A DNA stretch of 64,000 nt from the NCBI GenBank assembly GCA_018675335.1, contig JABGYH010000007.1:111902-175901 (forward strand), written 5' to 3'. Position numbers and translations under genes: made by a program. Each line of letters begins with the position of its first letter. The first letter of the stretch is position 1. Source of the stretch: Candidatus Woesearchaeota archaeon. Lineage in GTDB: Archaea; Nanobdellota; Nanobdellia; Woesearchaeales; UBA11576. The notes under the pieces were generated by a model. The model was not told the origin of the DNA. It worked only from the letters and a program-made list of their open reading frames with translations, and ran no database searches. This document shows positions 1 through 35,307 of this stretch, in pieces.

Positions 1-1
1 A

Positions 2-1171
2 AAAGAAGAAGATGAATTTAGCACAGACTTAGACGATATTGAAAAAGATGATGAAGGACTTAGCGCAAATGAACTTGAAGATTCAGACAAAAAGCTAGAT
101 GAAAATATGGATGATGATTTACTAGTTGAAGAAAAGGAAAAAATAGAGATTCCTGATGAAAAAACTACCGACGTTGAAGAAAAAACACAAAAGTTTTCAT
201 CCGCACTTAAAGATGATGAAGCAGCAAAATTAGACCTAAAAGAAGACGATCAAGCTGACTTGGAAGTAGCTGAAGAAATTAGTGAAAAAAAAGAAAAAAC
301 AGGATTTTTTGGAAAACTAAAACAAAAAGTTGCGGCAAAGACATTATCCGAATCAAAATTTGAAGATTTATTTTTTGAACTTGAAATAACATTACTTGAA
401 AATAATGTTGCAGTAGAAGTTATTGAAAAAATTAAAACAGATTTAAAAGAACGATTAGTCGATCATAAACTTAATCGATTTGAAATTGAAACAATAATTA
501 TGAGTACACTTAAAAAAAGCTTAAATGAAATACTAGATTTTGAGCCGTTTGATATTTTAGAAAAAGTTAAACATAAAAAACCATTCGTAATTACATTTGT
601 TGGAGTTAATGGCTGTGGAAAAACAACAACCATCGCAAAACTTGCAAGATTCTTTCAATCACAACAATTAAAACCAGTACTAGTTGCAGCAGATACATTT
701 AGAGCTGCAGCAATACAACAACTAGAAGAACATGCTAATCGCCTAGGTGTAAAAATGATCAAACATGATTATGGAAGTGATCCCGCAGCAGTAGCATTTG
801 ATGGAATAAAATATGCAGAATCAAAAGGTCTAGATGTAGTATTAATTGATACTGCAGGACGACTTCAATCAAACATAAACTTAATGGATGAAATGAAAAA
901 AATCATGAGAGTTGCAAATCCAGATCTTAAAATTTTTATTGGAGAATCAATAACTGGAAATGACTGCGTAGAACAAGCAAAAAAATTCAATGAAGCAGTA
1001 GAATTTGATGGAATAGTCTTATCAAAAGCAGATGTTGATGAAAAAGGCGGAGCTGCAATTTCAGTTTCATATGTTACAGGAAAACCAGTACTATTCATCG
1101 GAACTGGACAATCATATAAAGACTTAGAATTATTTAGTCGTACAAAAATCATGAAAACATTAGGATTTTAA
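2..1171 (+). CDS. ftsY: Signal recognition particle receptor FtsY. 5' partial: the reading frame is open to the window start. Acidic N-terminal domain followed by an NG GTPase domain.
   Basis: GVNGCGKTTTIAKLA P-loop, DTAGR and TGxGxxxK SRP-GTPase motifs. Frame 2 has no stop before the Met at 107. Confidence 0.88.
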   Translation, partial: KEEDEFSTDLDDIEKDDEGLSANELEDSDKKLDENMDDDLLVEEKEKIEIPDEKTTDVEEKTQKFSSALKDDEAAKLDLKEDDQADLEVAEEISEKKEKTGFFGKLKQKVAAKTLSESKFEDLFFELEITLLENNVAVEVIEKIKTDLKERLVDHKLNRFEIETIIMSTLKKSLNEILDFEPFDILEKVKHKKPFVITFVGVNGCGKTTTIAKLARFFQSQQLKPVLVAADTFRAAAIQQLEEHANRLGVKMIKHDYGSDPAAVAFDGIKYAESKGLDVVLIDTAGRLQSNINLMDEMKKIMRVANPDLKIFIGESITGNDCVEQAKKFNEAVEFDGIVLSKADVDEKGGAAISVSYVTGKPVLFIGTGQSYKDLELFSRTKIMKTLGF

Positions 1172-1263
1172 ACATTAGTAGGACAATAACATCTATCAAT
1201 CATAATAAATTTTATATATATCTCAAATATTTTCAAACTCATCAATAAAACCATAATTATGGG

Positions 1264-1896
1264 GTGGTATACTTGGATAAATTTAAAAAAGCATTTTTGC
1301 ATCCGTTTCAAGACGTAAAGTCAGTGATCATAGGATGTTTGTTAAATATTTTACCAATAATTAATTTCTTCTCAACAGGATATATTGTTGAAGCAGGAAA
1401 ACTAAGTTTAAAACACAAAAAAGCATTACCTAAATGGGAAAATTTTGGTCATTTATGGATCACAGGATTACTAGTATTTTTGTTCGGACTTATTTGGTCC
1501 ATACCTGCATTAATTTTAACATTTTTATTTGTTGGAAAACAATTCGTTTCAATGCTTACCACAGGCAGTGCTTTTGAAATGCTCCCAGGATTTAGTTCGG
1601 GAATTGTTTTAGTTGCAATAGTTTTTGTGTTAACATTTTATTTAATGCCTGCCGCACTAATGAACTTTATTAAAAAAGGACACTTTGGCGCAGCATTTGA
1701 ATTTAAAAAAATATTTTCAAAAGCTTTAACTGGAAAATATTTTGTCGTCTGGGCATTTTTTGTAGTAGTTTATTTTGTACTTTCATTTATTGCAAACTTA
1801 ATTCCTTTCGCAAATATAGTTTTAGCACCTGCAGCAGGATATATTGCATACATGATCGGCGTTACTGCAATCGCACATGTATGGGACAAATTATAA
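1264..1896 (+). CDS. Hypothetical polytopic membrane protein (DUF4013-like)
   Basis: About 5 hydrophobic helices. I recognise no catalytic motif. Confidence 0.5.
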   Translation: MVYLDKFKKAFLHPFQDVKSVIIGCLLNILPIINFFSTGYIVEAGKLSLKHKKALPKWENFGHLWITGLLVFLFGLIWSIPALILTFLFVGKQFVSMLTTGSAFEMLPGFSSGIVLVAIVFVLTFYLMPAALMNFIKKGHFGAAFEFKKIFSKALTGKYFVVWAFFVVVYFVLSFIANLIPFANIVLAPAAGYIAYMIGVTAIAHVWDKL

Positions 1897-1941
1897 AATT
1901 TTAGAAAGCTTAAATTAAATTTTTTATTTTTCTTTTCTTTG

Positions 1942-2601
1942 TTAATCAAATTCTATTTTATTATTATAAAAAACACCTTTGCTCAATGTAACCGGACGCC
2001 AAGTGTCATGAACGAGTTTTGCCTCCAACCAATCTGCTAATTCTTGTTCATTACCAATAGTTGCGCTGAGACCCACAATTTGAAGACCCACAATTAATTG
2101 TTTTAGAAGAGTTATAAGAATCTCCAATGTTGGACCTCGCCTTGGCTCATTTAAAAGATGTATTTCATCAATTACCACAACACCCACTTCTTTAATCCAA
2201 GGAGTCCTGTGACGAATTAATGAATCTAACTTTTCAGATGTACAAATAATTAAATCATATTTTGCAAGATGAGAATCCGATGCGTCAAGATCACCTATTG
2301 ATAATGCTATTTGAAACTTATCAGCATACTTTTTTTTAAATTCTTTATACTTCTCTGATGCTAGCGCCTTTAATGGGACAATATATATCGCCTTAGAATG
2401 TTTTTCTAAAACTGCATTAAGAATTGCCAGCTCACCCACCAAAGTCTTACCAGATGCAGTAGGCGTGCAAACTAAAAGATTCTTTTTTTGGAAAAGACCT
2501 GCAGCGATAGATTTTTTCTGAGAAGGACGAAACTCCACAATGTTTTGATCCTTAATTATATCAAAAATTCTTTTTGGCATTAACTTTTTTTCTGCATCCA
2601 T
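1942..2601 (-). pseudogene. Hel308/Ski2-type helicase, N-terminal RecA domain only (219 aa). Truncated gene fragment.
   Basis: Motif I TPTASGKT, motif II DEIH and motif III SAT are present. Motifs IV-VI and the winged-helix/ratchet domains are absent. The ORF stops 45 bp before the neighbouring gene. Confidence 0.6.
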
Positions 2602-2837
2602 TTTTAAAATTTATAAAAAATTTTAGAGTTTAATAAACTTAGTCTATGAAGAAGATGTTTTTAAATAATTTGGTTGGAAGTTATAGAAATTTTAAAGAGT
2701 TTATATTCTTTTTCACCCTAAACTGATGGTGAAAACACCTCTTTTCCCCTAACCGCTATTGTTTAGAACAACAAACTTTAAAAAAGACTGTTTAATATAA
2801 TAGAATGTAAGTTTTAACGCCAAAAAAGCTTAGATTC

Positions 2838-2866
2838 GGAGAGCAATCTCCTCTTTTTGTTTTTTG
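2838..2866 (+). terminator. Short hairpin (GGAGA-GCAA-TCTCC) followed by a T5GT6 tract. Could be a terminator for an upstream unannotated transcript.
   Basis: 5-bp inverted repeat plus a T-run seen directly. The stem is weak. Confidence 0.2.
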
Positions 2867-3070
2867 AGTATGCGAAAAGGATTGAAAGATCTTTTTTTCG
2901 CTCAAAATTCATTTTTAGATGTTTTTTTGATCTTAGGCGAGTTAAAATGGCTTTGAATTATATTTATAATTTTATTTTAATCAATTCAAAAATCAATAAC
3001 TTAATTTGAAAACAAGCATAAACACACCAAATAAATTTCATAATTAATTTAAATAAAAGGTTTAATAAAA

Positions 3071-4024
3071 ATGGCACATACACTACCCAAAGTTTATTTT
3101 TCTGTTGAAGAAGGATTTCAAAATTATCCTGAAGAGTTTTATAGAACAAGTAGAAGAATTTTATCAAAACTGAGCGATATAACTGACTTGTTTCTTGTAG
3201 TTCCAGGAGACTACAATTTAGAAAAAGGCACAATAAAAAAAGCATTTCGATTTCTTAGTCCAACACAATTACAACAAATTTTAGGCGAACATCAACCTGA
3301 AGGAGATATGTTCATAATTTATGGAGATGAAACTTCAAAAAATATAGGGTTAGAATTTGCAAAAAGACAATACCAATTTCTTCAAAATCTTAAGTCCGAA
3401 GGTGCGTTTAAACAATTTTTAAACGAACCTGAAACTGAAGAAGCAACTCTAAAAGATCGCCTAGTAGAATTATCAAAAGATCCTTCTTTAAACATAGCTG
3501 AAACTATTAGATATACTTCAAGAGATCAAACGAAAAGATTAATTCAAAAATATGGAGGACAAATTATTCTTAAACCAATTTTTGGTTGCAGAGGTTCAGG
3601 AGTAACTATTGTAACTTCACTAGATGATTTATTTGCTCAAGTTAATTCTGAAGATGAATTAAAACGAGATTACATACTTCAAGAACCGCTAGATGGATCA
3701 GAAGTTAGAGTTGTACTTCTTGATGACCAATTGCTTTGTTCTAGAGTACACCATAACAGAAAAACTCCTTGGGACACAACCAGATCACAAACAACTTATG
3801 ACCACTCCCCGACCACCGATGAATTAGAAATCACATCAAGAATATCCACCCAGGTTGGTGCATATCTGATCGGAGTTGATTTTATTGGACCTAAAGTTAA
3901 TGAAATCAATGGAACTGGAACTGGTTTAGTAATTTATGATCATACGGGAAATTTAATTTATGATAAAACTGACGAATTCGTACGCCATGTCATGAGTACA
4001 ATTCAAGAGGATCACCAAACATGA
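3071..4024 (+). CDS. ATP-grasp ligase, RimK/glutathione-synthetase-like
   Basis: C-terminal ATP-grasp motifs: ILKPIFGCRGSGV, then GAYLIGVDFIG...VNEINGTGTG (RimK-like GVDF/NEIN signature). Confidence 0.7.
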   Translation: MAHTLPKVYFSVEEGFQNYPEEFYRTSRRILSKLSDITDLFLVVPGDYNLEKGTIKKAFRFLSPTQLQQILGEHQPEGDMFIIYGDETSKNIGLEFAKRQYQFLQNLKSEGAFKQFLNEPETEEATLKDRLVELSKDPSLNIAETIRYTSRDQTKRLIQKYGGQIILKPIFGCRGSGVTIVTSLDDLFAQVNSEDELKRDYILQEPLDGSEVRVVLLDDQLLCSRVHHNRKTPWDTTRSQTTYDHSPTTDELEITSRISTQVGAYLIGVDFIGPKVNEINGTGTGLVIYDHTGNLIYDKTDEFVRHVMSTIQEDHQT

Positions 4025-5109
4025 ACGAAAAAATATTAATTTGTGGCGCAGGACAAGGAGGGCATGCAATTGCGGGCTATGCTGCAACATTAGGAAATGA
4101 AGTTAGTTTATACACTCACACCCCAAAAAAAGCAGAAATTATTTCTTCTAACGGCAACAAAATTAAATTAACAGGAATACTAGACGGTGAAGCGCAATTA
4201 AGAAGTATAACCACCAACCTCCAAGAAGCAGTTTCAGATAATAAATATATTTTCATAATTACCGATGCAACAGTTCATAAATACTATGCAGAAAGACTAG
4301 CACCAATCTTAACAGATCAACAAGTTATGTTAATTTCTCCAGGAATTGGAGGAGCACTTGAATTTTTAAATTTAGTTAATTCAATAAATCCTGATGCCAA
4401 CATAGGAGTTAGTGAAACAGATACATTAGTTTACGCGTGCAAAGTTCCAGAAATAGGAACTTCATATATTAAAACAGAAAAAAAAAGCATAATTTATTCT
4501 TCAGTTCCTAATGCGGAAGGAATTGCTGGACTTTTAAATGAACTGTATCCTCAATTTGAAGATGTAGGAAATCCTTTAATGGGCTTAGATGATAGTCCAG
4601 TATTTCATATTGTTGGAATGTTATATAATGCACACAGAATTTTAAATAAAGAAGATTTTAATTTTTATATTGGTGGAACGACAGAAGAAAGTGCAGAAAT
4701 AATGGAAGAAATGGATGCTGAAAGATGCGAGGTTGCCCGCGCAGTAGGAATTGAACCTAGAACTGTGCGTGAATGGTTAAACATCGCTTATGGCGTTGAA
4801 ATGAGTTCTTTATTTAACATGATACATGCGACACCCCCATACCAAAACACTCCTGAAATTCCAAATAGATCTCCTGCCCCAAAAACTCTCTTTCACAGAT
4901 ATTTGTTAGAAGAGATTCCTTTAAGAGCAGTTCCAACAGTTAGCATAGCAAGAATATTTGATATTCCAACTCCCCGATATGAAGAAATGGTCGGTAGAGC
5001 AAGAGAATTAACTGGAATTGATTTTTGGAAAACTGGAAGAACTCTTGAAGATATGGGATTAACAGAGCAAGATATAAAAAGATGGACCAATTCACATACT
5101 TGGAGATGA
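4021..5109 (+). CDS. Opine (octopine/nopaline-type) dehydrogenase family NAD(P) oxidoreductase
   Basis: By-eye alignment to Arthrobacter CENDH: GAGQGGHAIAGYAA Rossmann, SPGIGGALEF, MDAERCEVARA, DIPTPRY, DFWKTGRTLEDMGL. Start ATGA overlaps the upstream stop. Confidence 0.75.
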   Translation: MNEKILICGAGQGGHAIAGYAATLGNEVSLYTHTPKKAEIISSNGNKIKLTGILDGEAQLRSITTNLQEAVSDNKYIFIITDATVHKYYAERLAPILTDQQVMLISPGIGGALEFLNLVNSINPDANIGVSETDTLVYACKVPEIGTSYIKTEKKSIIYSSVPNAEGIAGLLNELYPQFEDVGNPLMGLDDSPVFHIVGMLYNAHRILNKEDFNFYIGGTTEESAEIMEEMDAERCEVARAVGIEPRTVREWLNIAYGVEMSSLFNMIHATPPYQNTPEIPNRSPAPKTLFHRYLLEEIPLRAVPTVSIARIFDIPTPRYEEMVGRARELTGIDFWKTGRTLEDMGLTEQDIKRWTNSHTWR

Positions 5110-5981
5110 AGTCTAATAGTCGAATAATCGCACCATCAAAAAAAATTTCTAAACACGAATTAATTAAGGGAATACAAAGATTACATAAAATAGGATTTAT
5201 CCCAAAATATAATTCAGATATTACTAGTTCAGATATTTATTTTGCAGGCACTTTGCAACGTCGTGTATTAGAAATCGAAACTGCACTTTTAGAAGTAAAA
5301 AATCCATTTATTTTTTGCGCTCGCGGAGGATATGCTTCTATGGAACTTCTCTCACACATTAATCCGAAGCTAATAAAAAAATCAAAAAAAACAATCATAG
5401 GCCATAGCGATATTACAGCATTACTCCTCGGTTTTTATAAAAAAGGATTTCAAGGCAATTTAATACACGGACCTAATATTTGCACTAAAAACTGGATTGA
5501 AAATTCAGTATCAGAAAAGTTATTAATTGATTGTTTAACAAATAAACCATACAAAATTAATTTAAAAAATCACACCCACATTTTAAATGAAAAAAGTTTT
5601 AATGGACACATAATAGGGGGAAATTTAAGAATTATTTGCCACATGATTGGCACAGAATATGAAATTGATACTAACAAAAAAATATTATTTTTAGAAGATG
5701 TTAACGAAAGACCTGCCGCAATATATAATATGTTACTTCACCTAAAATTGGCAGGAAAGTTAAAAAATATTAAAGCATTACTTATAGGAAATTTTCAAAA
5801 ATCAAGAAATTATTTAAAATTACTAGAAAAATTTATCAAAACTCTTAAAATACCAATTATTTATGAGCTTAGATTAGGCCACCAAAATAATATAATACCC
5901 ATAAGGCTAGGAGATTATGTTCATTATAATACCTTAACAAAAAATTTATCTTTTAAAAACAATAAACAAACAAAAAAATAA
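5082..5981 (+). CDS. S66-family LD-carboxypeptidase (LdcA/MccF-like)
   Basis: GHSDITALL nucleophile-Ser motif and a C-terminal GH-containing segment. Overlaps the upstream gene by 28 nt. Confidence 0.7.
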   Translation: MDQFTYLEMKSNSRIIAPSKKISKHELIKGIQRLHKIGFIPKYNSDITSSDIYFAGTLQRRVLEIETALLEVKNPFIFCARGGYASMELLSHINPKLIKKSKKTIIGHSDITALLLGFYKKGFQGNLIHGPNICTKNWIENSVSEKLLIDCLTNKPYKINLKNHTHILNEKSFNGHIIGGNLRIICHMIGTEYEIDTNKKILFLEDVNERPAAIYNMLLHLKLAGKLKNIKALLIGNFQKSRNYLKLLEKFIKTLKIPIIYELRLGHQNNIIPIRLGDYVHYNTLTKNLSFKNNKQTKK

Positions 5982-5998
5982 ATAATTTTTAAATATGT

Positions 5999-6616
5999 GT
6001 GATATTCATGAAACCATATAAACAAACAACGAGGTATACATCTGCGAGTAGTGCTCTATTGATGGTGTTGAATCACTTTGATTCTAAGTTTGAGTTAAGT
6101 CGCGATAACGAATTTTGGATTTGGCAGAGAAGTGCCACTCTTCCTACAAGAGGATCTTCCATATATGCGCTTGGGACTTTGGCTGCAAAAAAAGGAATTT
6201 CTGTATCCATTATTGTGGAAGAACCAGAATATAAATTTCCAGGATATAGATTTAAAGCATACAAGAAAAAAGAAATTGATGTTGCCAATTTTCGTTCAGA
6301 ATTATTTTACAAACAAGCAACCAAAGAAAATATTAAAATTGAAGAAAGAGATTTTGAATTAACTGAAGTTAAAGACTTACTTTGTCAAGGAAAATTGTTA
6401 ATGGTTAGATTAATAGTTGGAATTTTAAGACAAAGTAAATTAAATAGACGAAATCCACATTATGTTTTAATTACAAATTATGATTCTGATAAAAAAGAAT
6501 TTAAAATAATTGATACTCGAAAAGGAAAATTAAAAATTTCTGAAGAACTAATGATTGAAGCTTTTGAAACAGTACATACCTGCAAAAGAGATAATAGAAT
6601 GATCATATTTGGATAA
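5999..6616 (+). CDS. C39-like (papain-fold) peptidase domain protein. The canonical Cys is replaced, so it is possibly Ser-nucleophile or inactive.
   Basis: His in HYVLI followed about 17 residues later by IIDT, matching C39 His/Asp topology. The N-terminal TSASSALLMVL occupies the position of the CGxxxL nucleophile motif but has no Cys. Confidence 0.4.
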   Translation: MIFMKPYKQTTRYTSASSALLMVLNHFDSKFELSRDNEFWIWQRSATLPTRGSSIYALGTLAAKKGISVSIIVEEPEYKFPGYRFKAYKKKEIDVANFRSELFYKQATKENIKIEERDFELTEVKDLLCQGKLLMVRLIVGILRQSKLNRRNPHYVLITNYDSDKKEFKIIDTRKGKLKISEELMIEAFETVHTCKRDNRMIIFG

Positions 6617-6646
6617 AATATATTTTTAACTTATGTGTGCGAATCA

Positions 6647-7492
6647 TTATTTCTTTTTTCTTACGTTTTTAGAAATTGTTTTTACTTTTAATTTATTAGA
6701 AGTTATTTTTTTGAACTTTACATTTTTTTTAACAACTTTTACTAAATCATTTTGCACCAAACCATTTGATGCTATTAATTGCGAAGTATTAACTGTTGCA
6801 GATTTTCCTTTAAAATCACTCACACTTCCCCCTGATTCAGTTACAATTAATAATCCTGCCGCAATATCCCAACTATTAATACCATGCATAATACACCCAT
6901 CCAGTCTTCCCGCACCAACATATGCAAGTTCTAATGCCGCAGAACCTAACCTGCGAATTCTTAATTTATGTTTAATTAAATCAGAATAAATATTTACGGC
7001 TTCACGAGTTTCTTTATGGGTTTTTCTATGACCTAAATCAAGAACAGTTCCTTTTAGTGTTTTTGCACGCGACACTCTAATTGGTTTTCCATTTAATTCT
7101 GCGCCTTTGCCTTTTTCTGCACAAAACATCTCTTTAGTGTAAGGATTAAAAACAACTGCAACAACACTTTCATTATTTACTACAAGACCAATTGACACAT
7201 TAAAATAAGGAAGTTGAATTTTATAATTGGTTGTTCCGTCGATAGGATCAATAAACCACACATGATCCGAACTTAAATTTGTACACCCAAATTCTTCACC
7301 ACAAAAACCATGATCAGGAAATTCTTTTAAAATAATTTGTTTAATCTTTTTTTCAGATGCTTTGTCTGCATTGCTCACCAAAGAATCATCGTTTTTAAAT
7401 TCAAATGTTGCACAACCATAATTTTTTAGAATTATTTTTCCTGCAGCACGTGCTGCTTTAATTGCAACTTTTAATAATTTTGATTTCTTCAT
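6647..7492 (-). CDS. suhB: Inositol monophosphatase / archaeal FBPase-IMPase family, with a Lys-rich C-terminal tail
   Basis: WFIDPIDGTTNY metal-binding motif and WDIAAG motif. Confidence 0.8.
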   Translation of the reverse strand: MKKSKLLKVAIKAARAAGKIILKNYGCATFEFKNDDSLVSNADKASEKKIKQIILKEFPDHGFCGEEFGCTNLSSDHVWFIDPIDGTTNYKIQLPYFNVSIGLVVNNESVVAVVFNPYTKEMFCAEKGKGAELNGKPIRVSRAKTLKGTVLDLGHRKTHKETREAVNIYSDLIKHKLRIRRLGSAALELAYVGAGRLDGCIMHGINSWDIAAGLLIVTESGGSVSDFKGKSATVNTSQLIASNGLVQNDLVKVVKKNVKFKKITSNKLKVKTISKNVRKKK

Positions 7493-7555
7493 TTGTATGA
7501 TCTCTAATTTTTGTGTTTTTTATTAAATTTAATGTAAACTATTGTTAAATATAAA

Positions 7556-9151
7556 TTAAAATAAAGGATATGACATCTCATTAGGAATTGGAAGATCCAT
7601 TAATTTAAGAATCGTCGGTGCAACATTTGCAATACTACTTTTTTTCTTAGTTAATTTTATGTTATTATTTGAAAATTTATTATTTTCTTCAAGGATTAAA
7701 ATTAAAGGAACTTTATTTGTAGTATGACTTGTTTTATGAACTCCTGCCATTTCTTCAGCATTGCCATGATCTGCAGTAACAATTATATTGTAATTATTTA
7801 ATTTTGCAACTTTCATTACTTTTTCTAAACAAGCATCAGTTATTTGAACTGCATTAATTGCAGCATCAAGATATCCTGTGTGTCCAACCATATCCGGATT
7901 TGAAAAATTTATTAAAATAAAATCTTGAGACTTATTTTTAATTTGTGAAACTACCTTTTTAGTTATTTCATTTGCTCTCATTTGAGGAGTTTCATCATAA
8001 GTTTTAACTTTGCGACTAGGAATAATTATTCGATCTTCTTTTTTGAATGGAGTTTCTTTTCCCCCATTAAAGAAAAAAGTAACATGCGCATATTTTTCCG
8101 TTTCAGCAATCCTTAATTGAGATTTATTATTTTTAAATAAAATTTCACCCAAAGTGTTTTTAGGCAAGGAAGGAGGAAACGCCACAGGTGCTTTAATTTT
8201 TTTATCATATTGAGCAAGACACACAAAATCAAGATCGAAAATCTTTTTTCGTTTAAACTCAAGAAATTTTCCTTGAACAAACGCTTTGGTTATTTCTCTT
8301 GCGCGATCTCCTCTGAAATTAAAAAATATCATCGAGTCATTTTTATCAACTGTTGAATTATCAGTTATTGTTGGAGGAATAAACTCATCAGTAATTCCTT
8401 TTTTATAAAAATCTTTTATTAAATTTTTAATCTGTTTAATTGACATAAATCCAGGATGTTTTTTACGATGATCTTTTTTACTCACCAAGGATTCATACGC
8501 CCTATGTTCTCTGTGCCACCTATGATCCCTATCCATACCATAATACCTGCCAATAATTGTTGAAATTACTACTTTAATTTTTAAAGTGCGTAATTTTTTT
8601 CCTAATAAATCAAAATATTTTAAAGCGCTCATTGGAGGTACATCTCTACCGTCGAGAATAGGGTGAAAATAAACCGTTTTAATCCCTTTTGACCCCATTA
8701 ATTTTAGAATTGCGAATAAATGATTAATGTGTGCATGAACTCCTGCATCACTAAATAAACCCAACAAATGCATTTTACTTTTATTTTTTTTAACGTGCGT
8801 AATTGATTTAAGAAGTGCTTTATTTTTGAAAAATGAACCATTTTTAATTGACCTATTAATTAAAACTAATTCTTGAGGAATTACTCTTCCAGCACCAAGA
8901 TGAAGATGACCTACTTCACTATTTCCAATTACTGATTTTGGGAGCCCAACACTTGGCCCACTTGCGTCAAGTAACATATGAGAATTTTTTTTCCAAAGAG
9001 AATCAAAACAAGGAGTTTTAGCTTTTTGAATCGCATTATTTACTTGGCTAGTTCTTATTCCCCAACCGTCCAGAACAATTAGCACAGATTTGGAACTAGA
9101 ATTTATTTTAGACTGCCCGCGCTTAGAACTCTGTTTAGTTGTCATTTTCAC
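7556..9151 (-). CDS. gpmI: 2,3-bisphosphoglycerate-independent phosphoglycerate mutase, bacterial GpmI type
   Basis: VLIVLDGWGIR N-terminus, metalloenzyme domain DHGNAEEM, length 531 aa. Confidence 0.85.
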   Translation of the reverse strand: MKMTTKQSSKRGQSKINSSSKSVLIVLDGWGIRTSQVNNAIQKAKTPCFDSLWKKNSHMLLDASGPSVGLPKSVIGNSEVGHLHLGAGRVIPQELVLINRSIKNGSFFKNKALLKSITHVKKNKSKMHLLGLFSDAGVHAHINHLFAILKLMGSKGIKTVYFHPILDGRDVPPMSALKYFDLLGKKLRTLKIKVVISTIIGRYYGMDRDHRWHREHRAYESLVSKKDHRKKHPGFMSIKQIKNLIKDFYKKGITDEFIPPTITDNSTVDKNDSMIFFNFRGDRAREITKAFVQGKFLEFKRKKIFDLDFVCLAQYDKKIKAPVAFPPSLPKNTLGEILFKNNKSQLRIAETEKYAHVTFFFNGGKETPFKKEDRIIIPSRKVKTYDETPQMRANEITKKVVSQIKNKSQDFILINFSNPDMVGHTGYLDAAINAVQITDACLEKVMKVAKLNNYNIIVTADHGNAEEMAGVHKTSHTTNKVPLILILEENNKFSNNNIKLTKKKSSIANVAPTILKLMDLPIPNEMSYPLF

Positions 9152-9240
9152 CTCTACAAATATTTGAAACGATTAAATAAAAAAATAAAAAATTAAATAA
9201 AATAAATATTTTAACTTAATCTTATAACCATTACATTAAA

Positions 9241-10281
9241 TTATAACAATGATGCGAACACTTCAAATTTTTGTTCCCTATAACTAATTAATGTGTCATA
9301 ATTTTTAACTCGATCTTTAAATTCAAGACGGATCTTACGAATAGTGTCATGAAATCCCTTTTGATTTCTAGCAACAACTTTTAACACAATATTATAATCC
9401 CCCATTGTTTTCATTGCACGAACAATATTTGGGTGCATCCTTACAAGTTGCTTGAATTTCATCTCATCTTCTTTAGTCATGTATTTCATATTCAAAAATA
9501 AAGTATAAAATTGATATCCTATTAAAGACCAGTTAATGATTGTGCTAAATTGTTGAATTACGCCTTTGTCCACTAGTTTTTTAATTCGGTAATTAACAGT
9601 ATCTGCACTGACACTTAATTTTTCAGCTAACGCATATAATGATTCCCTGCCATTTTTTGCGAGAAGATTCATTAAATTCCTATCAGTTTCATCCAATTTA
9701 ATATCATCTTGCCCTAATTCTTTATGCTTTTTTGGTTTATCCAAATTTTCGATTTCAGGTGGCTCTTCAATTTTTTGTTTTACAAATTCTCTTGGTATGT
9801 TAACATAGGAATAATTTTTGATAACATGAAAAATTTCCATATTTTCAACTAGATCAGAAAACTTTGTTAAAAAATCATTTAATACTTCATCAAATTCATC
9901 AACAGTTTTAGAATAAACCGCCAATTCAAGCTCCCATTTATCACTATATTCTATAATATTTAGAAAATTAGGATTTTTTTTAAGATAATCAAATAATTCT
10001 TTTTCTTTGCTTGACTCTAATTCGACAATTTGCAAATATACCTTAAAATGCTTATAATCAAATAAAGAATATTTAGATAAAATTGTGAATTTTTGTATAA
10101 CTCCTAATTCTTGCATGCGATTAATTCTATACCTAACTGCATCTCGTGATAACATCACTTTTTTTGCAAGCTCAGAAAATGTTAAACGACAATTATTAAC
10201 TAACAACCCAATAATTTTCCTATCTTTTAGGTCGAGCTTAGGAAGCTCAGAAACTTCATCCAGTATTCTTGTTACAACCAT
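9241..10281 (-). CDS. Tandem-fused Lrp/AsnC family transcriptional regulator (two HTH+RAM modules)
   Basis: Two repeats of an HTH (DRKIIGLLVNNCRLTFSELAKKV / DRNLMNLLAKNGRESLYALAEKL) each followed by a RAM-like domain. 346 aa is about 2 x 170. Confidence 0.7.
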   Translation of the reverse strand: MVVTRILDEVSELPKLDLKDRKIIGLLVNNCRLTFSELAKKVMLSRDAVRYRINRMQELGVIQKFTILSKYSLFDYKHFKVYLQIVELESSKEKELFDYLKKNPNFLNIIEYSDKWELELAVYSKTVDEFDEVLNDFLTKFSDLVENMEIFHVIKNYSYVNIPREFVKQKIEEPPEIENLDKPKKHKELGQDDIKLDETDRNLMNLLAKNGRESLYALAEKLSVSADTVNYRIKKLVDKGVIQQFSTIINWSLIGYQFYTLFLNMKYMTKEDEMKFKQLVRMHPNIVRAMKTMGDYNIVLKVVARNQKGFHDTIRKIRLEFKDRVKNYDTLISYREQKFEVFASLL

Positions 10282-10520
10282 TTTAGATATTTTAAAATTT
10301 ATTATTATTTAAAACTTACGATTTAATTAGCTAATTATGTGAAAACTTAATTAAATCACTAATCAAACTCAAGAATAATAAGAAAAATAAGTAAACTGAT
10401 AAAACTAAGAAAAATAAGACAACTAATAAAAATAAGAAAACTCAAAAAAATAAAATCAACCATAATAATAAAAATAATAATAAAAATAATAATAATTATA
10501 AAAATACGCAAGACCCATAG

Positions 10521-11813
10521 TTAATACTTAGCTCTTTTACCAAGTTCCACTTCTATTTGCATGAGCCTATTGTATTTTGCTAAACGTTCTCCCCTACAAG
10601 GCGCTCCAGATTTGATTTGACCCGAACCCAAACCCACAACTAAATCCGAAATAAATGTACTAGTAGTCTCACCACTACGATGACTAACCATCACATTCCA
10701 ATCATTTTTCAACGCCAACTTTGCAGCAGCTAATGCTTCTGTTACGGTCCCAATTTGATTCACCTTTAACAAAAGTGCATTGCATAAATTCCTGTCAAGT
10801 GCAAGTTTAACACGATCAACACTCGTAACTAACAAATCATCACCAACAATTTGAACTTTTTTTCTCTTAAGAACTTTATTTTGTCGCAACATAGAAAAGC
10901 CAGAAAAATCATCTTGATCAAAAGGATCTTCAATAGATACAATAGGATATTTTTTAACTAACTCTTCATAAAAATCAACAAATTTGTTTTTCGAAAATCG
11001 TTTTCCATCAACTTTGTAATAACCTTTATGAAAAAACTCAGACGCTGCCGCATCCATTGCAATCTTAATTTTTTTAGAATAACCTAAATCATCAATTGCA
11101 GTCACCAGTAAATTTAATGCTTGTTCAACACAATCAATTCTTGGAGCAAACCCTCCTTCATCACCAACATTAGTGGAATCCTTGCCATACTTATGACCAA
11201 TAACTCTTTTTAATTCGTGATATGTTTCGGCACCAATACGAACACTATCCGCAAAATTCTTCCCTTTAGGCGCAATCATAAATTCTTGAAACGCCAATTT
11301 ATTTTCTGCGTGCTTCCCACCATTTAAAACATTGAAAAATGGAGTTGGCAAGCGATTTTTAGTACCAATAATCGAATATAACTTTTTATTTTTGACAATG
11401 GAACAAAGACGATATGATGCCAAACTAACTCCTAAAATTGCATTCGCACCAAGTCGAGATTTGTTTTTAGTTCCATCCAAATCCACTAATGCGCGATCTA
11501 TTTTTTTAGGTTCACGAACATCAAAACCTTTTAATTTACGATTTATAATTGTATTAACATTATTAACTGCTTTTAAAACTCCTTTACCACCGTACCGTTT
11601 GCCACCATCTCTTAGTTCCCACGCTTCATGAATCCCTGTTGATGCACCACTTGGTACTTCTTCTGTTGCAGAGTGAGTTTTTGTAAATACTGTAACTTCA
11701 ACTGTAGGATTACCTCTAGAATCAAGAATTTCTCTAGCAAAAATCTTTCTTATGAAAAAATCGTCTTTTGCAGCCCTAACAGAAATAAATTTTGTAGCCA
11801 AGTTACACCTCAA
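10521..11813 (-). CDS. eno: Enolase (phosphopyruvate hydratase)
   Basis: [15 protein letters not shown] and SHRSGETEDTFIADL-like [15 protein letters not shown] motifs. The track ORF starts at TTG. The real start may lie about 20 codons in from the track start. Confidence 0.92.
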
Positions 11814-12040
11814 TTTTTGAAAATAATATTTTTACAAACCCATTTATGACCTAATCGCCAACAAATTAGATCTGATTATTAAAAATATAATATAATAGAT
11901 GAAAATAGTTATTTATAAACTTTATGTAGCACTAGCGAGTAAACTATCTGGTTAATATTAAAAATAACGAATTGATAGTACCCCAAATTGATTAAATTAA
12001 ATCAGTAATTGATTCAATACTTAATTATTGAATCAGTGCA

Positions 12041-24385: not shown

Positions 24386-26332
24386 ATGGCATTTGAAAAA
24401 AAATCTCCAACAGAGGAAGAATTTTTAGTACAAATAAAAGCCAATAATCCAAATGCAAACTTCGAATTAATTCAAAAAGCATACCGCTTTGCAGAAAATG
24501 CGCACAAAGGACAAAAAAGAGAATCAGGCGAAGATTTTTTTATTCATCCCTTGCAAACTGCAACAATTCTAGTACAATTAAAAGCTGACACTGCAACTAT
24601 TTGTGCAGCACTATTACATGATACAGTAGAAGACACCCCTAATTCAATCGACGTAGTTCGAAAAGAATTTGGAGAGGAAATTGCCGTACTTGTTGAAGGA
24701 GTTACCAAAACACAAGGCATTTGGTTTGATTCAAAAGAAGAATACAAAGCAGAAAATCTTCGTAAAATACTTCTTGCAACAACAAAAGACTTCAGAGTTA
24801 TAGTTGTCAGACTTGCAGACAGACTCCACAATATGCGAACTCTTTCTTATTTTAGAGAAGATAAACAAAAAAGAATAGCAAAAGAAACAATGGAAATTTA
24901 TGCACCCATCGCACACAAATTAGGAATTTGGAGAATTAAAGGAGAGTTAGAAGATTTATCATTAAGATATTTAGATTACAAAACATACAGCATTCTACGA
25001 GAAAAAATAGCTGAGAAAAGAGGAGAACGAGAAAAAGCAACAACTGATCTTACTCAACAAATAAAAGATGCACTAAAAAAAGAAGGAATCGATGCAGATG
25101 TAAAAGGACGTGCAAAATATTTCTACTCAATATATAAAAAGATGACAAAAAAGAATCGTCGCTTTGATGAAATATATGATTTAATAGCATTCAGAATAGT
25201 TACTTCTCGCGTCGAGGAATGCTATAAAGCAGTTGAAATAATAAATAAATTATTCACACCTCACCCAGAAAGATTTAAAGATTATGTAGCACACCCGAAA
25301 GCCAACGAATACCAATCAATACACATGACTGTAGGGTATAAGAAAAAATTACTCGAAGTTCAAATAAGAACTAATGATATGGACCACATCGCAGAAGAAG
25401 GAATTGCTGCACACTGGAGATACAAAGGAACAGAACGAGACAAGAAATTTGATAGAAAAATTGCCTGGTTAAAACAAATTCTTGATTGGAAACGAAAATC
25501 AAAAAACGCAATAGAATTCGTCGAGTCACTAAAAATAGATTTATTTGAAAATGAAATAATAGTTTTTACTCCACAAGGAGATCCGATTTCATTACCTGAA
25601 TGTGCAACCCCTGTTGATTTCGCATATGCAGTCCATAGTAATTTAGGAAATCAATGCAGTAAAACAAAAGTCAATAATAAAATCGAATCACTAGATTACG
25701 AACTTCACAGCGGAGATGTTGTCGAAGTAATCACTCAAAAAAATGCTAAACCCTCTAGGTCGTGGCTTAATTTTGTAAAAACAACTAAAGCAAAAAGTAA
25801 AATTAGAATTTTCTTAGAAATCAAACCCGATAAAAAACTTGGAGATAAAAAACGAAAAGCAATAGCTCGCGGCGAACTTGAAGAAAAAATACCCGTACTT
25901 GAAAATATACTAATCCACGGAAAAGATTCTGGCAAAAATAATTTAATAAAATTGTCAGGATGTTGTGAAATAAAACATGGAGAAAAAATAGTTGGATTTT
26001 ATACAAAAGAAAAAAAAATAAGCATCCACAAACAGGGATGTATCAATATTCACTCACTTGATTCAAATCGCGAAGTAAAATTAAGTTGGATAGTTCCAAA
26101 AGATTATAATATTAAAAAACTCAAAGTATTTGTTGATGATAGGCCAGGAGTTTTAGCAGATATTTTAAACTATTTGGGAACCAAACAAATCAAAGTTAAA
26201 TCTGTTAATACAAGAGCTAAGAAAAAGAAAATACTACTAACATTCAAAATAGAACTTTCTGATGAGAATAAATTAAATAAAACGATTCAAGAAATAAGTG
26301 AAATCCGAGATGTTATTGAAACTAGAATTTAA
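24386..26332 (+). CDS. Long RelA/SpoT-homologue (p)ppGpp synthetase/hydrolase: HD + synthetase + TGS + ACT domains
   Basis: HD: HPLQTATILVQL...LHDTVEDT. Synthetase: DLIAFRIVT...YQSIHMTV. TGS: IVFTPQGDPISLPECATPVDFAYAVHS. C-terminal ACT-like region. Confidence 0.85.
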   Translation: MAFEKKSPTEEEFLVQIKANNPNANFELIQKAYRFAENAHKGQKRESGEDFFIHPLQTATILVQLKADTATICAALLHDTVEDTPNSIDVVRKEFGEEIAVLVEGVTKTQGIWFDSKEEYKAENLRKILLATTKDFRVIVVRLADRLHNMRTLSYFREDKQKRIAKETMEIYAPIAHKLGIWRIKGELEDLSLRYLDYKTYSILREKIAEKRGEREKATTDLTQQIKDALKKEGIDADVKGRAKYFYSIYKKMTKKNRRFDEIYDLIAFRIVTSRVEECYKAVEIINKLFTPHPERFKDYVAHPKANEYQSIHMTVGYKKKLLEVQIRTNDMDHIAEEGIAAHWRYKGTERDKKFDRKIAWLKQILDWKRKSKNAIEFVESLKIDLFENEIIVFTPQGDPISLPECATPVDFAYAVHSNLGNQCSKTKVNNKIESLDYELHSGDVVEVITQKNAKPSRSWLNFVKTTKAKSKIRIFLEIKPDKKLGDKKRKAIARGELEEKIPVLENILIHGKDSGKNNLIKLSGCCEIKHGEKIVGFYTKEKKISIHKQGCINIHSLDSNREVKLSWIVPKDYNIKKLKVFVDDRPGVLADILNYLGTKQIKVKSVNTRAKKKKILLTFKIELSDENKLNKTIQEISEIRDVIETRI

Positions 26333-32574: not shown

Positions 32575-33918
32575 ATGAATGTTTACAAATTTGGAGGCAC
32601 CAGTCAAAAAGATCGTCAATCATTACAACAATGTATAAAAATTATCAGAGATGGGTCTGTGAACGATATAGTCATCGTCTCAGCACCCGCAGGAGTTACA
32701 GATTTATTAATTCAAGGATTTGATGAACAAACCAGCACAGGAGAATTTACTCGAGAAACGTTTGAAAAAATTCAATCTAGATTTTTTGAAGTTCATCCAG
32801 AACAAGAAAAACGAGCAATAATTGAATCTGGAATGAATGAATTAGAGCTTAGAATATCCCAGGGAATGCAAGATGGTTTTGGAACAGAACAATTAAAAGA
32901 TTTACACTATGCAAGAATTGCTTCATTTGGCGAATTTTTAGAACCCAGATTATTTTCAGAAAATTTAAAAATGGAAGGAATTAGAAGTCGCGTTGGAAGA
33001 ATTGAACAAACAATGAGAGTTCATGGGCCACCAAGAAATGCAAAATATGATCGATGTTCCGACCCAAGAATACTTGAAGAAGTTAGTGGATTTGATGGAG
33101 TCACAGTATTTAGTGGGTTTTATGGCTTTGATTCTGATGGAAACATATTAGTGTTTAGCCGAGGCGGATCAGATTTTACCCAAACACTAGTTTCAAGAGC
33201 AGTAAATGCGGACGCTTGCTTTAATTGTACAGATGTTAATGGAGTATTCCCCATAAATCCAAACCTACTTACTCCAAATGCTGCTGAAAAATTAAGAACC
33301 ATACCCGAATTACAATATGAACAAGCACAAGAATTATCAAAACAAGGTGCTAAAGTTTTACATCCTAAATGTATCGAACCATTAAAAGAAAAAGGAATTC
33401 CACTTTATGTAATAAACACATTTGATCCCCTTGGTCCAAACACAGTTATTGGTCCTGAAAGTCGAGCATACATCGGAGTTAATGCAGTCACAGGACGAAA
33501 ACAAGCATTCACCAAAATAAGTTTAACTACTGGATGCATGGATGGCGCAACAGGATACTTGCAAAATTTTGCAAATTCATTTGAAGGAGTAGATGTAGAA
33601 ACAATAAGTACATCTGCCATCGAATTAAGCGCAGGATTTTCAGATCCAACTGCAGATACGGATTTAATACTTGAAAGATTAGCACAATATGGAACTGCAA
33701 AAAAACAAAATGGACAATCCATGATTGCAATAGTTGGAAAAGGAATTGGCAGAAGTCCTGCAATAATTGGTAAGTTTTTTTCCACTTTAGGAGTTTTGGA
33801 CATTCCAGTTGATCAAATAACCAAATCAAATGATTATTGTCTTTGGGTTTCAATACCACAACACCATTATGAACGTGCAATGGTTGGAATCTACAATGCA
33901 ATGCTTACTCGACAATAA
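32575..33918 (+). CDS. lysC: Aspartate kinase
   Basis: KFGGTS N-terminus, SRGGSDFTQT...TDVNGVF...GAKVLHP amino-acid-kinase motifs, C-terminal ACT region. Confidence 0.8.
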   Translation: MNVYKFGGTSQKDRQSLQQCIKIIRDGSVNDIVIVSAPAGVTDLLIQGFDEQTSTGEFTRETFEKIQSRFFEVHPEQEKRAIIESGMNELELRISQGMQDGFGTEQLKDLHYARIASFGEFLEPRLFSENLKMEGIRSRVGRIEQTMRVHGPPRNAKYDRCSDPRILEEVSGFDGVTVFSGFYGFDSDGNILVFSRGGSDFTQTLVSRAVNADACFNCTDVNGVFPINPNLLTPNAAEKLRTIPELQYEQAQELSKQGAKVLHPKCIEPLKEKGIPLYVINTFDPLGPNTVIGPESRAYIGVNAVTGRKQAFTKISLTTGCMDGATGYLQNFANSFEGVDVETISTSAIELSAGFSDPTADTDLILERLAQYGTAKKQNGQSMIAIVGKGIGRSPAIIGKFFSTLGVLDIPVDQITKSNDYCLWVSIPQHHYERAMVGIYNAMLTRQ

Positions 33919-34026
33919 ATTAAGTCGCAGAAGAATCGGCAAACTATGCGCAAGAAAAAAAAGGAATGAATAGCCTGGAAAAAAAAAGAAAAGAAGAGAC
34001 TAAAAAAAAATGGAATGTGATTATAA

Positions 34027-35307
34027 ATGAATTCAGAAAAACTAATCGAAGCTGCTCAAAAATTTAAAACTCCACTTTATGTTTATGATGGAAATTTAAT
34101 TAAAACAAGATATAGAGAATTAAATCATTCATTGAATTGTGCAACTGATGTTAAAACTAAATTATTTTATGCAATGAAAGCAAATTATAATCCGTCAATA
34201 TTAAAATTATTGCTAAATGAAGGTGCAGGAATTGATGCAGTAAGTCCTGCAGAAGTAATGCTCGCTTTAGAAGTAGGATTTTTCCCAAACCAAATACTTT
34301 TCACAGCAAATAAAATAACTGATGAAGAAATGAGACTTGTCAAGTCAACAGGAGTTTTATTTAATATTGGCTCAATTTCTCGATTAAAAAAATATTGTAA
34401 AGAATTCCCAAAAAGCTCAGTATGCATTCGATTTAATCCCATGATTGTTGCAGGAGAAACTGAAAAAGTTAGAACTGGAGGAGAAAATAGCAAATTTGGA
34501 ATTTTTATTTCACAACTAGATCAAGTATTAGAAATTACCCGCTCAGCAGATGTAAAAATTGTTGGAGTTCACGAACACACAGGGTCAGGAATTCCCGAAA
34601 TGGTACAAATGAAAGCAGGCATGCAAAATCTACTTGACATAGTTACTCCAAAAAATTTTCCAGACCTAATATTCGTAGATTTTGGAGGAGGATTTAAAGT
34701 ACCATACACCCCCGGAGAAGAAAAAATTAATTATGATTTATTTGGAAAAGATGCAACACAAATTTTTCTTAATCGAACAAAGGATTTTTACACACAATTT
34801 AATCGACGCATTGAAATGTGGTTTGAACCAGGAAAATATCTTGTTGCAGAATCAGGAAATTTACTCGTTGAAGTTACTGCAATCAAACATAACCCCCATA
34901 AAACATTTGCAGGAACAAATTCAGGCTTCCCTCAGCTCATAAGACCTATGTTTTATCAAGCATACCACCACATAATAAACTTAACAGCAAACCAAGATAA
35001 TCAACGTAGAAATAACTGTGACGAAATCTCAAAACAAATACACCAATATGATATTGTTGGAAATATTTGCGAGAGTGGTGATTGTTTTGGCGTGAATCGT
35101 GAAATGGAAGAAATACATGAAGGAGACATACTATCAATTCAAACTGCCGGAGCTTATTGTTATTCAATGGGTAGCGTTTACAATTTAAGAGTAATGCCTG
35201 CCGAAGTCATGTTTTTAAATAATTCAATTACACTCATTCGTAAAAGACTAACTGAACAAGAGCTAGTCGCACAAATAATTGGAGAATGTAGTACAGATAC
35301 TGAATAA
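34027..35307 (+). CDS. lysA: Diaminopimelate decarboxylase (Orn/DAP/Arg decarboxylase family 2)
   Basis: PLYVYD, YAMKAN (PLP Lys), EPGKYLVAESG, CESGD motifs. Confidence 0.8.
   Translation: MNSEKLIEAAQKFKTPLYVYDGNLIKTRYRELNHSLNCATDVKTKLFYAMKANYNPSILKLLLNEGAGIDAVSPAEVMLALEVGFFPNQILFTANKITDEEMRLVKSTGVLFNIGSISRLKKYCKEFPKSSVCIRFNPMIVAGETEKVRTGGENSKFGIFISQLDQVLEITRSADVKIVGVHEHTGSGIPEMVQMKAGMQNLLDIVTPKNFPDLIFVDFGGGFKVPYTPGEEKINYDLFGKDATQIFLNRTKDFYTQFNRRIEMWFEPGKYLVAESGNLLVEVTAIKHNPHKTFAGTNSGFPQLIRPMFYQAYHHIINLTANQDNQRRNNCDEISKQIHQYDIVGNICESGDCFGVNREMEEIHEGDILSIQTAGAYCYSMGSVYNLRVMPAEVMFLNNSITLIRKRLTEQELVAQIIGECSTDTE

Follow-up and report, generated by a model that had tools for sequence, protein, structure and literature searches.

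Four co-directional genes at positions 3071-6616 of a 64,000-nucleotide stretch of DNA (called the window throughout), taken from a metagenome-assembled genome of Woesearchaeota (DPANN), raise the question of whether an ATP-grasp ligase, an opine dehydrogenase (ODH), an S66 carboxypeptidase and a C39-like papain-fold protein work together in one pathway. A preliminary description of the window had taken them as a single operon for an opine-type or peptide-tailoring system. Comparison with homologous loci led us to a different division, in which the first three genes form a rare, mobile cassette found only in Nanoarchaeota and Woesearchaeota, and the C39-like gene is independent of it. The features of the window on which the argument turns are listed below; the ODH is described there by its likeness to N-(1-D-carboxyethyl)-L-norvaline dehydrogenase (CENDH).

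3071..4024, + strand: ATP-grasp ligase, 317 amino acids; cassette gene 1
4021..5109, + strand: NAD(P)-dependent ODH, CENDH-like, 362 amino acids; cassette gene 2, its start overlapping the ATP-grasp stop (ATGA)
5106..5981, + strand: S66 serine carboxypeptidase, 291 amino acids; cassette gene 3, forming an ATGA with the ODH stop at 5106-5109; its open reading frame reaches up to 5082
6008..6616, + strand: DUF3335/C39-like papain-fold protein, 202 amino acids; neighbour outside the conserved cassette; its open reading frame reaches up to GTG 5999
3048..3055, + strand: TATA-like TTTAAATA, 15 nucleotides upstream of the ATP-grasp ATG, read from the sequence
5986..5995, + strand: TTTTTAAATA element between the S66 and C39-like genes; the upstream 70 nucleotides were compared in 23 loci
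2602..3070, no strand: non-coding gap of 469 bp between a divergent DEAD-helicase gene and the cassette, forming the left edge of a variable slot

Gene boundaries

The four open reading frames (ORFs) are real, being present in the ORF list at 3071-4024, 4021-5109, 5082-5981 and 5999-6616; the ATGA start/stop overlap at 4021-4024 is present in the sequence, and every motif quoted in the preliminary description was found in the translations. Two of the junctions that it gave were revised. The 28-nucleotide overlap placed at 5082-5109 is an artefact of taking the most upstream ATG; the ATG at 5106, which is the depositors' call and the point at which S66 homologues also begin, makes a second ATGA with the ODH stop codon. 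The GTG start at 5999, with its 17-nucleotide gap, is less likely than the ATG at 6008, again the depositors' call, which leaves 26 nucleotides after the S66 gene and gives an N-terminus (MxxYKQTT) conserved in 22 homologues. On the basis of the depositors' calls and the homologue starts, we dropped the codons at 5082 and 5999 in favour of those at 5106 and 6008. Profile searches of each protein, as had been suggested, backed all four families above the Pfam gathering scores. The GC content is level across the window, at 28-34%.

Conservation of the cassette

Eight independent long loci were compared: the window and those labelled L025, L027, L029, L030, L034, L035 and L038. In all eight, an ATP-grasp gene of the window type is followed directly by an ODH gene, the two genes either overlapping by 4 nucleotides or lying no more than 11 nucleotides apart. 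An S66 gene follows in six of the eight, and in three (L025, L035 and L038) a second ligase gene, of the GSH-S/RimK type and from a different family than the first, comes after the ODH gene. The flanking genes differ in all of the cassette loci, which indicates that the cassette moves as a block. The conserved unit is an ATP-grasp gene, an ODH gene, an optional second ATP-grasp gene and an optional S66 gene, rather than a set of four. The operon first proposed has thus survived in part: the ATP-grasp, ODH and S66 genes are conserved and tightly coupled (at least seven other loci), whereas the C39-like gene is missing from all seven other copies, and conservation of the gene neighbourhood, which had been put forward as a check, showed that the adjacency is not due to chance for three of the genes but did not do so for the fourth.

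The cassette is rare. Its ligase belongs to a very small family, with 22 representative clusters at E <= 1e-30 among 1.84 billion representative proteins, and a scan of metagenomes with the ligase alignment yielded just six more loci, confirming the rarity. The 15 ligase homologues (35-53% identity) come from Nanoarchaeota or Woesearchaeota wherever the source is named, and the ODH orthologues of the cassette are 54-67% identical. No small ORF that might encode a precursor or carrier is conserved across the eight cassette loci.

Genomic context of the C39-like gene

Apart from the window, the survey of this gene covered 22 loci from distinct Woesearchaeota/Nanoarchaeia genomes. An ATP-grasp gene of the window type, or an S66 gene, lies beside the C39-like gene in none of these 22 genomes, and an ODH gene is found in only three of the loci, where it is approximately 33% identical and belongs to another set of genes. 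Clustering of the ORFs of all loci showed that the position of the C39-like gene is fixed in 13 of them, including the window: FtsY comes first, then a DEAD-helicase gene (- strand), a stretch that varies and the C39-like gene (+ strand), followed in some loci by a PfkB kinase gene, and lastly the iPGM and enolase genes (- strand). The slot between the DEAD-helicase and C39-like genes ranges from about 0.7 to about 6 kb and carries at least nine different gene sets; that of L013 (about 0.7 kb) holds a 78-residue ORF alone, and that of the window is filled by the three-gene cassette (2602-6007). Many of the sets combine an ATP-grasp ligase with an amidohydrolase, and others consist of sugar enzymes, as listed below together with the loci in which the C39-like gene lies outside the syntenic frame.

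Slot of L012, L016 and L017: ODH, fused B12-binding/glutamate-mutase-like protein, Ddl-like ATP-grasp, C26 peptidase
Slot of L004 and L009: YheCD-type ATP-grasp, with a GATase also in L004
Slot of L006: ATP-grasp_3, FGase, M20 peptidase
Slot of L019: PALP enzyme, DUF2334, ATP-grasp, two Amidohydro_2 proteins
Slot of L014: two OCD/mu-crystallin genes
Slot of L008: M14/AstE-like hydrolase
Slot of L005, L010 and L011: GT4, GFO/IDH/MocA and PIG-L sugar enzymes
Outside the frame: L021 (GT4 and GDE_C-type glycosidase), L024 (GT2 and GH3), L018 (PGI and ROK)

Because the C39-like gene is absent from the other cassette loci, is present in 22 genomes without the window-type ATP-grasp and S66 genes, and keeps its synteny while the genes upstream of it vary, it is independent of the cassette, and its adjacency in the window is explained by the position of the slot. 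Around the slot we found no signature of a mobile element: there is no tRNA gene, the repeats are only AT-rich ones of the kind expected by chance, and the GC content is flat. The DEAD/ResIII helicase gene at the left edge (window 1942-2601, - strand) encodes a protein of only 219-234 amino acids in all loci, which may be a truncated or split helicase.

The encoded proteins

The ligase matches the Pfam families GSH-S_ATP (31.4 bits against a cut-off of 23, E = 1.6e-7) and RimK (22.9 against 21, E = 7.4e-5). It scored below every NCBIfam equivalog and subfamily cut-off for RimK, glutathione synthase, MptN and LysX, with 20-40 bits against 143-408 (MptN, 39.8 against 350; rimK_fam, 37.3 against 143; glutathione synthase, 27.7 against 272). 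The closest folds to its AlphaFold model, which has a predicted local distance difference test (pLDDT) score of 92.9, are those of PsnB, RimK and GshB, with template modelling (TM) scores of 0.66-0.67, and of LysX/ArgX (Foldseek, E = 1e-11 to 1e-14), and LysX is also its top sequence match in the PDB. The fold and the ATP-grasp core are therefore like those of GshB, RimK, LysX and ArgX, whereas the equivalog models failed and the N-terminal domain is specific to the family, with an invariant motif of its own, FIIYGDETSK. As GshB, RimK, LysX and PsnB all acylate amines using a peptide or protein carboxylate, the modelled fold would fit the same chemistry in this enzyme.

The ODH matches Octopine_DH in Pfam (105.4 bits against a cut-off of 30, E = 3.6e-30), and its N-terminal NAD(P)-binding Rossmann domain, which carries a GAGQGGHA motif, is matched by ApbA and NAD_Gly3P_dh_N. 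In a PDB sequence search its best solved relative was CENDH of Arthrobacter sp. 1C (1bg6; PF02317), aligned over the full length with E = 1.8e-36, and the only others at E <= 0.01 were entries for Pecten octopine dehydrogenase. The Rossmann GxGxxG, the catalytic His and the sequence RY(L/F)xE(D/E) are shared with CENDH. All 18 sequences compared share His196 and Arg293, and position 298 is Glu in the clade of the window as against Asp in distant relatives, so that the catalytic residues are intact, with an acid kept at 298. Against these likenesses stand a low identity (judged by eye), the Glu in place of Asp, an insertion of 6-7 residues (TPEIPNRS) in the window clade, and the location of the gene in a ligase/peptidase operon, unlike that of CENDH, a stand-alone enzyme whose physiological role is not established.

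These relationships bear on the statement, made in the preliminary description, that the ODHs of bacteria are dedicated to metallophores of the CntM type. It does not apply here: the closest solved relative is CENDH, and the PDB search gave no match of the CntM type at E <= 0.01. The staphylopine, pseudopaline and yersinopine pathways (CntK-CntL-CntM) likewise contain an ODH-family step that makes an N-carboxyalkyl derivative of an amino acid, but no CntL, racemase or exporter is among the genes called in the annotated cassette loci, and the amide bonds that an ATP-grasp ligase would form in the cassette contrast with the transfer of aminobutyrate derived from S-adenosylmethionine in CntKLM. 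No Pfam family resembling nicotianamine synthase, as would mark a CntL-like gene, was found in the called genes of six annotated cassette loci, only selected ORFs having been scanned in L034 and L035. We rejected the CntM-type metallophore as an interpretation, since CntL was not found and the ODH is CENDH-like.

The S66 protein matches Peptidase_S66 (86.7 bits against a cut-off of 25, E = 1.7e-24) and S66C (101.9 against 23.7, E = 4.5e-29). Among solved structures it comes closest to E. coli LdcA (5z01, E = 1.7e-22), relatives of MccF being weaker matches, and its top NCBIfam match is muramoyltetrapeptide carboxypeptidase. Like LdcA and MccF, the window protein has both S66 domains; its Ser-Glu-His triad aligns with that of LdcA, and all six cassette copies compared keep Ser101, Glu197/Glu201 and His259, so that the catalytic residues are intact. 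The protein differs from LdcA in scoring far below the equivalog cut-off (NF008424, 129.9 bits against 378) and in having an archaeal host; archaea are expected to lack murein.

The C39-like protein is a member of DUF3335 (PF11814; 66.3 bits against a cut-off of 25, E = 3.5e-18), a family mentioned, in our literature search, in a single classification paper, which places it among the papain-like proteins and relates it to PF09778 (PMC10318531). The nucleophile position had been described as lacking Cys, and this was confirmed. The protein has 62 homologues, and in the alignment most orthologues carry Cys where the window protein has Ser13 (codon TCT, in the 202-residue numbering), a few have Ser, Ala, Gly or Leu, and some have lost the His as well. 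Gln6, His at about 151 and Asp at about 169 are retained in the window protein. The AlphaFold model (pLDDT 92.7) is papain-like, and its best fold match is the phytochelatin-synthase-like Alr0975 of Nostoc (E = 3e-6, TM score 0.56), followed by the C39 domains of PCAT proteins and by PeiR. Alr0975 is a primitive phytochelatin synthase, solved in glutathione-acylated form; the identity is only 13-15%, the nucleophile in the window protein is Ser, and a gamma-glutamyl substrate is without support. The pairing of an ATP-grasp ligase with a C39 peptidase had been described as one that recurs in peptide ligation and in ribosomally synthesized and post-translationally modified peptides (RiPPs), an argument that loses its force here, as there is no conserved precursor ORF and no ABC transporter, and the fold is nearer to a phytochelatin-synthase-like enzyme than to a double-glycine leader peptidase. 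No ABC exporter is fused to or located beside the protein, which is stand-alone at 202 amino acids, in the window neighbourhood or in the annotated cassette loci. A RiPP or graspetide interpretation is not supported, there being no precursor gene beside the ligase and no ABC exporter.

Proposed function

Each enzyme of the cassette belongs to a known superfamily but fails the tests of its characterized subfamilies, and the composition of the cassette is undescribed as far as our literature searches reach; no paper was found that mentions both opine dehydrogenase and ATP-grasp, and papers on opine dehydrogenase and archaea exist that were not checked for an archaeal counterpart. The interpretation that we prefer, at a little under even odds (a probability of about 45%), is that two units lie side by side in the window, namely a mobile cassette that makes a small N-carboxyalkyl (opine-type) pseudopeptide and a separate DUF3335/C39-like gene.

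We infer the substrates, the order of the steps, the synthetic direction and the nature of the product as follows. Using NAD(P)H, the ODH would reductively condense a 2-oxo acid, perhaps pyruvate by analogy with CENDH, with an amino acid or short peptide at its free amino group. The GshB/RimK-like ligase, or ligases, would convert a carboxylate to an acyl phosphate and join it to an amine, forming one or two amide bonds, and would thereby either make the peptide that the ODH alkylates or extend the opine. The S66 hydrolase, with its Ser-Glu-His triad, might then take off a C-terminal residue, in maturation, turnover or self-protection. In this genome the cassette would have landed in the slot that precedes the C39-like gene. 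That an ATP-consuming ligase is the invariant partner of the ODH argues for synthesis. The logic resembles, by analogy only, that of VanH-VanA-VanX/VanY, in which an unusual building block, made by a pyruvate-using dehydrogenase, is incorporated by an ATP-grasp ligase, and a terminal residue is trimmed off by a carboxypeptidase or dipeptidase; the dehydrogenase and peptidase families differ, and the cassette has no cell-wall context.

Several observations weigh against this proposal. The cassette has no transporter, regulator or resistance gene as a regular companion, such as would suggest that its product is secreted, a Zip transporter and an ion channel each occurring once among its loci. 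ODHs are reversible, and the distant ODH relative that we sampled lies in a catabolic-looking cluster, among genes for Oox-like flavoproteins, arginase and hydantoinases. S66 genes of DPANN archaea have been read as serving the scavenging of murein peptides (PMC11537232). In the window, the 26-nucleotide gap before the C39-like gene and a TATA-like element only 12 nucleotides from its ATG mean that this gene may be co-transcribed with the cassette. Finally, sets of an ATP-grasp ligase and an amidohydrolase occupy the same slot elsewhere, and the C39-like protein could have a generic link to such pathways.

Alternative explanations

The alternative that survives best, which we nevertheless consider rather unlikely, is that peptides taken up from outside, such as the stem peptides of bacterial murein, are salvaged or broken down to feed an organism that is poor in amino-acid biosynthesis. 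An LdcA-type S66 enzyme would free the terminal D-alanine, the ODH, working in the oxidative direction, would convert a D-configured or secondary-amine substrate into pyruvate and an amino acid, and the papain-fold neighbour would cut gamma-linked peptides. The relationship of the S66 protein to LdcA and to muramoyltetrapeptide carboxypeptidase points in this direction, as does the interpretation given to the abundant S66 genes reported in Pacearchaeota, which were taken as evidence of murein scavenging by these DPANN archaea (PMC11537232). So do the genes for a GH3 glycosidase, an M14/AstE-like protein, an M20 peptidase, C26 proteins and PIG-L deacetylases upstream of the C39-like gene elsewhere, the resemblance of the C39-like fold to the pseudomurein endoisopeptidase PeiR, and the catabolic-looking surroundings of the distant ODH relative. 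On the other hand, the invariant partner of the ODH consumes ATP, the S66 gene is missing in two of the eight loci while a second ligase has been added, and the S66 score is about a third of what the LdcA equivalog model demands (129.9 bits against 378). Nor did we find a peptide transporter or a recycling enzyme, including those of the Mpl, AmpD/NagZ and YkfB/YkfC types, beside the cassette, a result that refers to the cassette neighbourhoods.

Salvage had also been linked to a lysA gene at 34027 that would turn released diaminopimelate (DAP) into lysine, a weak connection, as the lysA-like gene is unlinked: 28 kb separate it from the cassette, its neighbour is an aspartokinase-like gene, and further murein or DAP genes are missing from its vicinity. 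At window 32575-35307 the aspartokinase-like gene (AA_kinase and ACT domains) lies directly upstream of this ornithine/DAP/arginine decarboxylase ('lysA'), and no other gene of the DAP pathway was found within 10 kb of it.

It is improbable that the four genes form a true unit, in which the product of the cassette would be processed or bound by the C39-like protein, with its Ser in place of Cys, much as phytochelatin synthase acts on glutathione that an ATP-grasp ligase has made. All four genes are co-directional, the last following after 26 nucleotides; the nearest fold to the C39-like protein is the glutathione-acylated Alr0975, and unrelated ATP-grasp genes occupy the slot of at least seven other loci (L004, L006, L009, L012, L016, L017 and L019). 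Yet the C39-like gene is found in none of the seven other cassette loci, it is present where the slot has no ATP-grasp gene (L013, L008, L018 and L024), and in most genomes it is preceded by a conserved TATA-like element of its own. Moreover, the window protein has another residue in place of the catalytic Cys, and several orthologues have lost both Cys and His.

More improbable still is a reversible modification of the C-terminus of a protein or carrier, as with RimK/RimB, tubulin tyrosine ligase and its carboxypeptidase, or the LysW amino-group-carrier pathway. Here the ligase would attach an amino acid to a C-terminal carboxylate, the ODH would modify the tethered residue and the S66 enzyme would release it, and such a logic of attachment, modification and release suits the combination of a ligase, an NAD(P)H enzyme and a carboxypeptidase. 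The nearest folds of the ligase, RimK, LysX/ArgX and the graspetide macrocyclases, act on protein or peptide carboxylates, and LysX is its best sequence match in the PDB. However, no small carrier or precursor ORF is conserved with the cassette, the only recurrent small neighbour (133 amino acids, in four of the eight loci) does not end in an acidic C-terminus and is not encoded in the window, and we know of no ODH that acts on a protein-tethered substrate.

A chance juxtaposition of unrelated housekeeping enzymes is very improbable, for although the adjacency of the fourth gene is accounted for by its slot position rather than by a shared function, chance is excluded for the three cassette genes by their order and overlapping junctions in eight loci with unrelated flanks.

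Upstream sequences

The TATA-like TTTAAATA upstream of the ligase gene is, from its sequence, a candidate archaeal promoter of the cassette. An element resembling TTTTTAAATA lies approximately 25-33 nucleotides before the ATG of the C39-like gene in most of the 23 loci (about 17 by eye), whatever gene is upstream; it fits a separate archaeal promoter for this gene, which would give a short leader or none, and in the window it is just 12 nucleotides from the ATG. The 469-bp gap before the cassette (2602-3070) contains no tRNA gene and no convincing ORF, and has no similarity to the other loci; it folds only modestly better than shuffled sequences (z = -2.7). Two hairpins are present at window 2690-2900, one of which (GGAGA-GCAA-TCTCC, at about 2838-2852) is followed by a run of T. 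A search of window positions 1-12000 for riboswitches and other non-coding RNAs gave no Rfam match at E <= 1, and a riboswitch upstream of the cassette was rejected on this ground and because the sequence of the gap is not conserved elsewhere.

Neighbouring genes

In four of the eight loci, and in two arrangements, a gene directly beside the cassette encodes a protein of approximately 133-140 amino acids. At 74-85% identity from locus to locus, this protein is more conserved than the enzymes, and it has no Pfam match, no significant PDB match and no acidic C-terminus. Neither the 64-kb window nor the stretches fetched for L025, L029 and L038 encode it, and it may be a regulator. A winged-helix regulator of approximately 315 amino acids (matches of the HTH_24, MarR, TrmB and AsnC types) is encoded divergently just upstream of an operon with an ODH gene in three unrelated loci. 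The positions of the two are as follows.

L027, 6254-6676, - strand: neighbour of about 133-140 amino acids
L034, 7227-7628, - strand: the same
L030, 5490-5906, + strand: the same
L035, 10917-11417, + strand: the same
L025, 5892-6845, - strand: winged-helix regulator
L040, 4961-5905, - strand: the same
L041, 3851-4798, - strand: the same

An ODH gene followed by that of a B12-binding, glutamate-mutase-like protein (411-612 amino acids) is a conserved pair that recurs in L012, L016, L017, L040 and L043, archaeal loci among them, and the ODH cluster of L043 also contains Oox-like flavoproteins, an arginase and hydantoinases. Within one or two genes of the cassette, a DUF1846 gene (approximately 500 amino acids) occurs in L027 (11217-12737, + strand) and L034 (11743-13224, - strand), and the Zip metal transporter gene directly follows the S66 gene in L027. 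The window encodes a long-form RelA/SpoT homologue (HD, RelA_SpoT, TGS and ACT domains; 648 amino acids) at about 24386-26332 (+ strand). The corresponding gene of L029 (4964-6952) follows a double AsnC-type regulator and directly precedes the cassette. None of the four proteins of the locus had a PADLOC match at E <= 0.01, and a role in a known anti-phage defence system was rejected for that reason.

Implications

The DPANN archaea are usually viewed as metabolically minimal scavengers. If the cassette is biosynthetic, it would be one of few dedicated secondary-metabolite-like pathways in this group, on which ATP and NAD(P)H are spent, and, as far as our literature searches reach, the first opine-type pathway in archaea; if it is catabolic, it would instead define a way in which DPANN archaea use peptides from their neighbours. 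In either case, the products of the three genes are small and soluble, which should make them tractable in vitro, and the slot between the DEAD-helicase and C39-like genes is a defined place in which to seek the lineage-specific accessory metabolism of Woesearchaeota. A wider generalization, which we think unlikely but worth stating, is that Woesearchaeota and Nanoarchaeota possess a family of N-carboxyalkyl pseudopeptides, made by a ligase and an ODH and without bacterial or eukaryotic counterpart, and that the slot is a diversifying locus in which cassettes of ATP-grasp and amidohydrolase genes are exchanged for the production of lineage-specific peptide metabolites. Were this so, such peptides could serve in metal binding, in the inhibition of proteases or in interaction with the host in these episymbiotic archaea.

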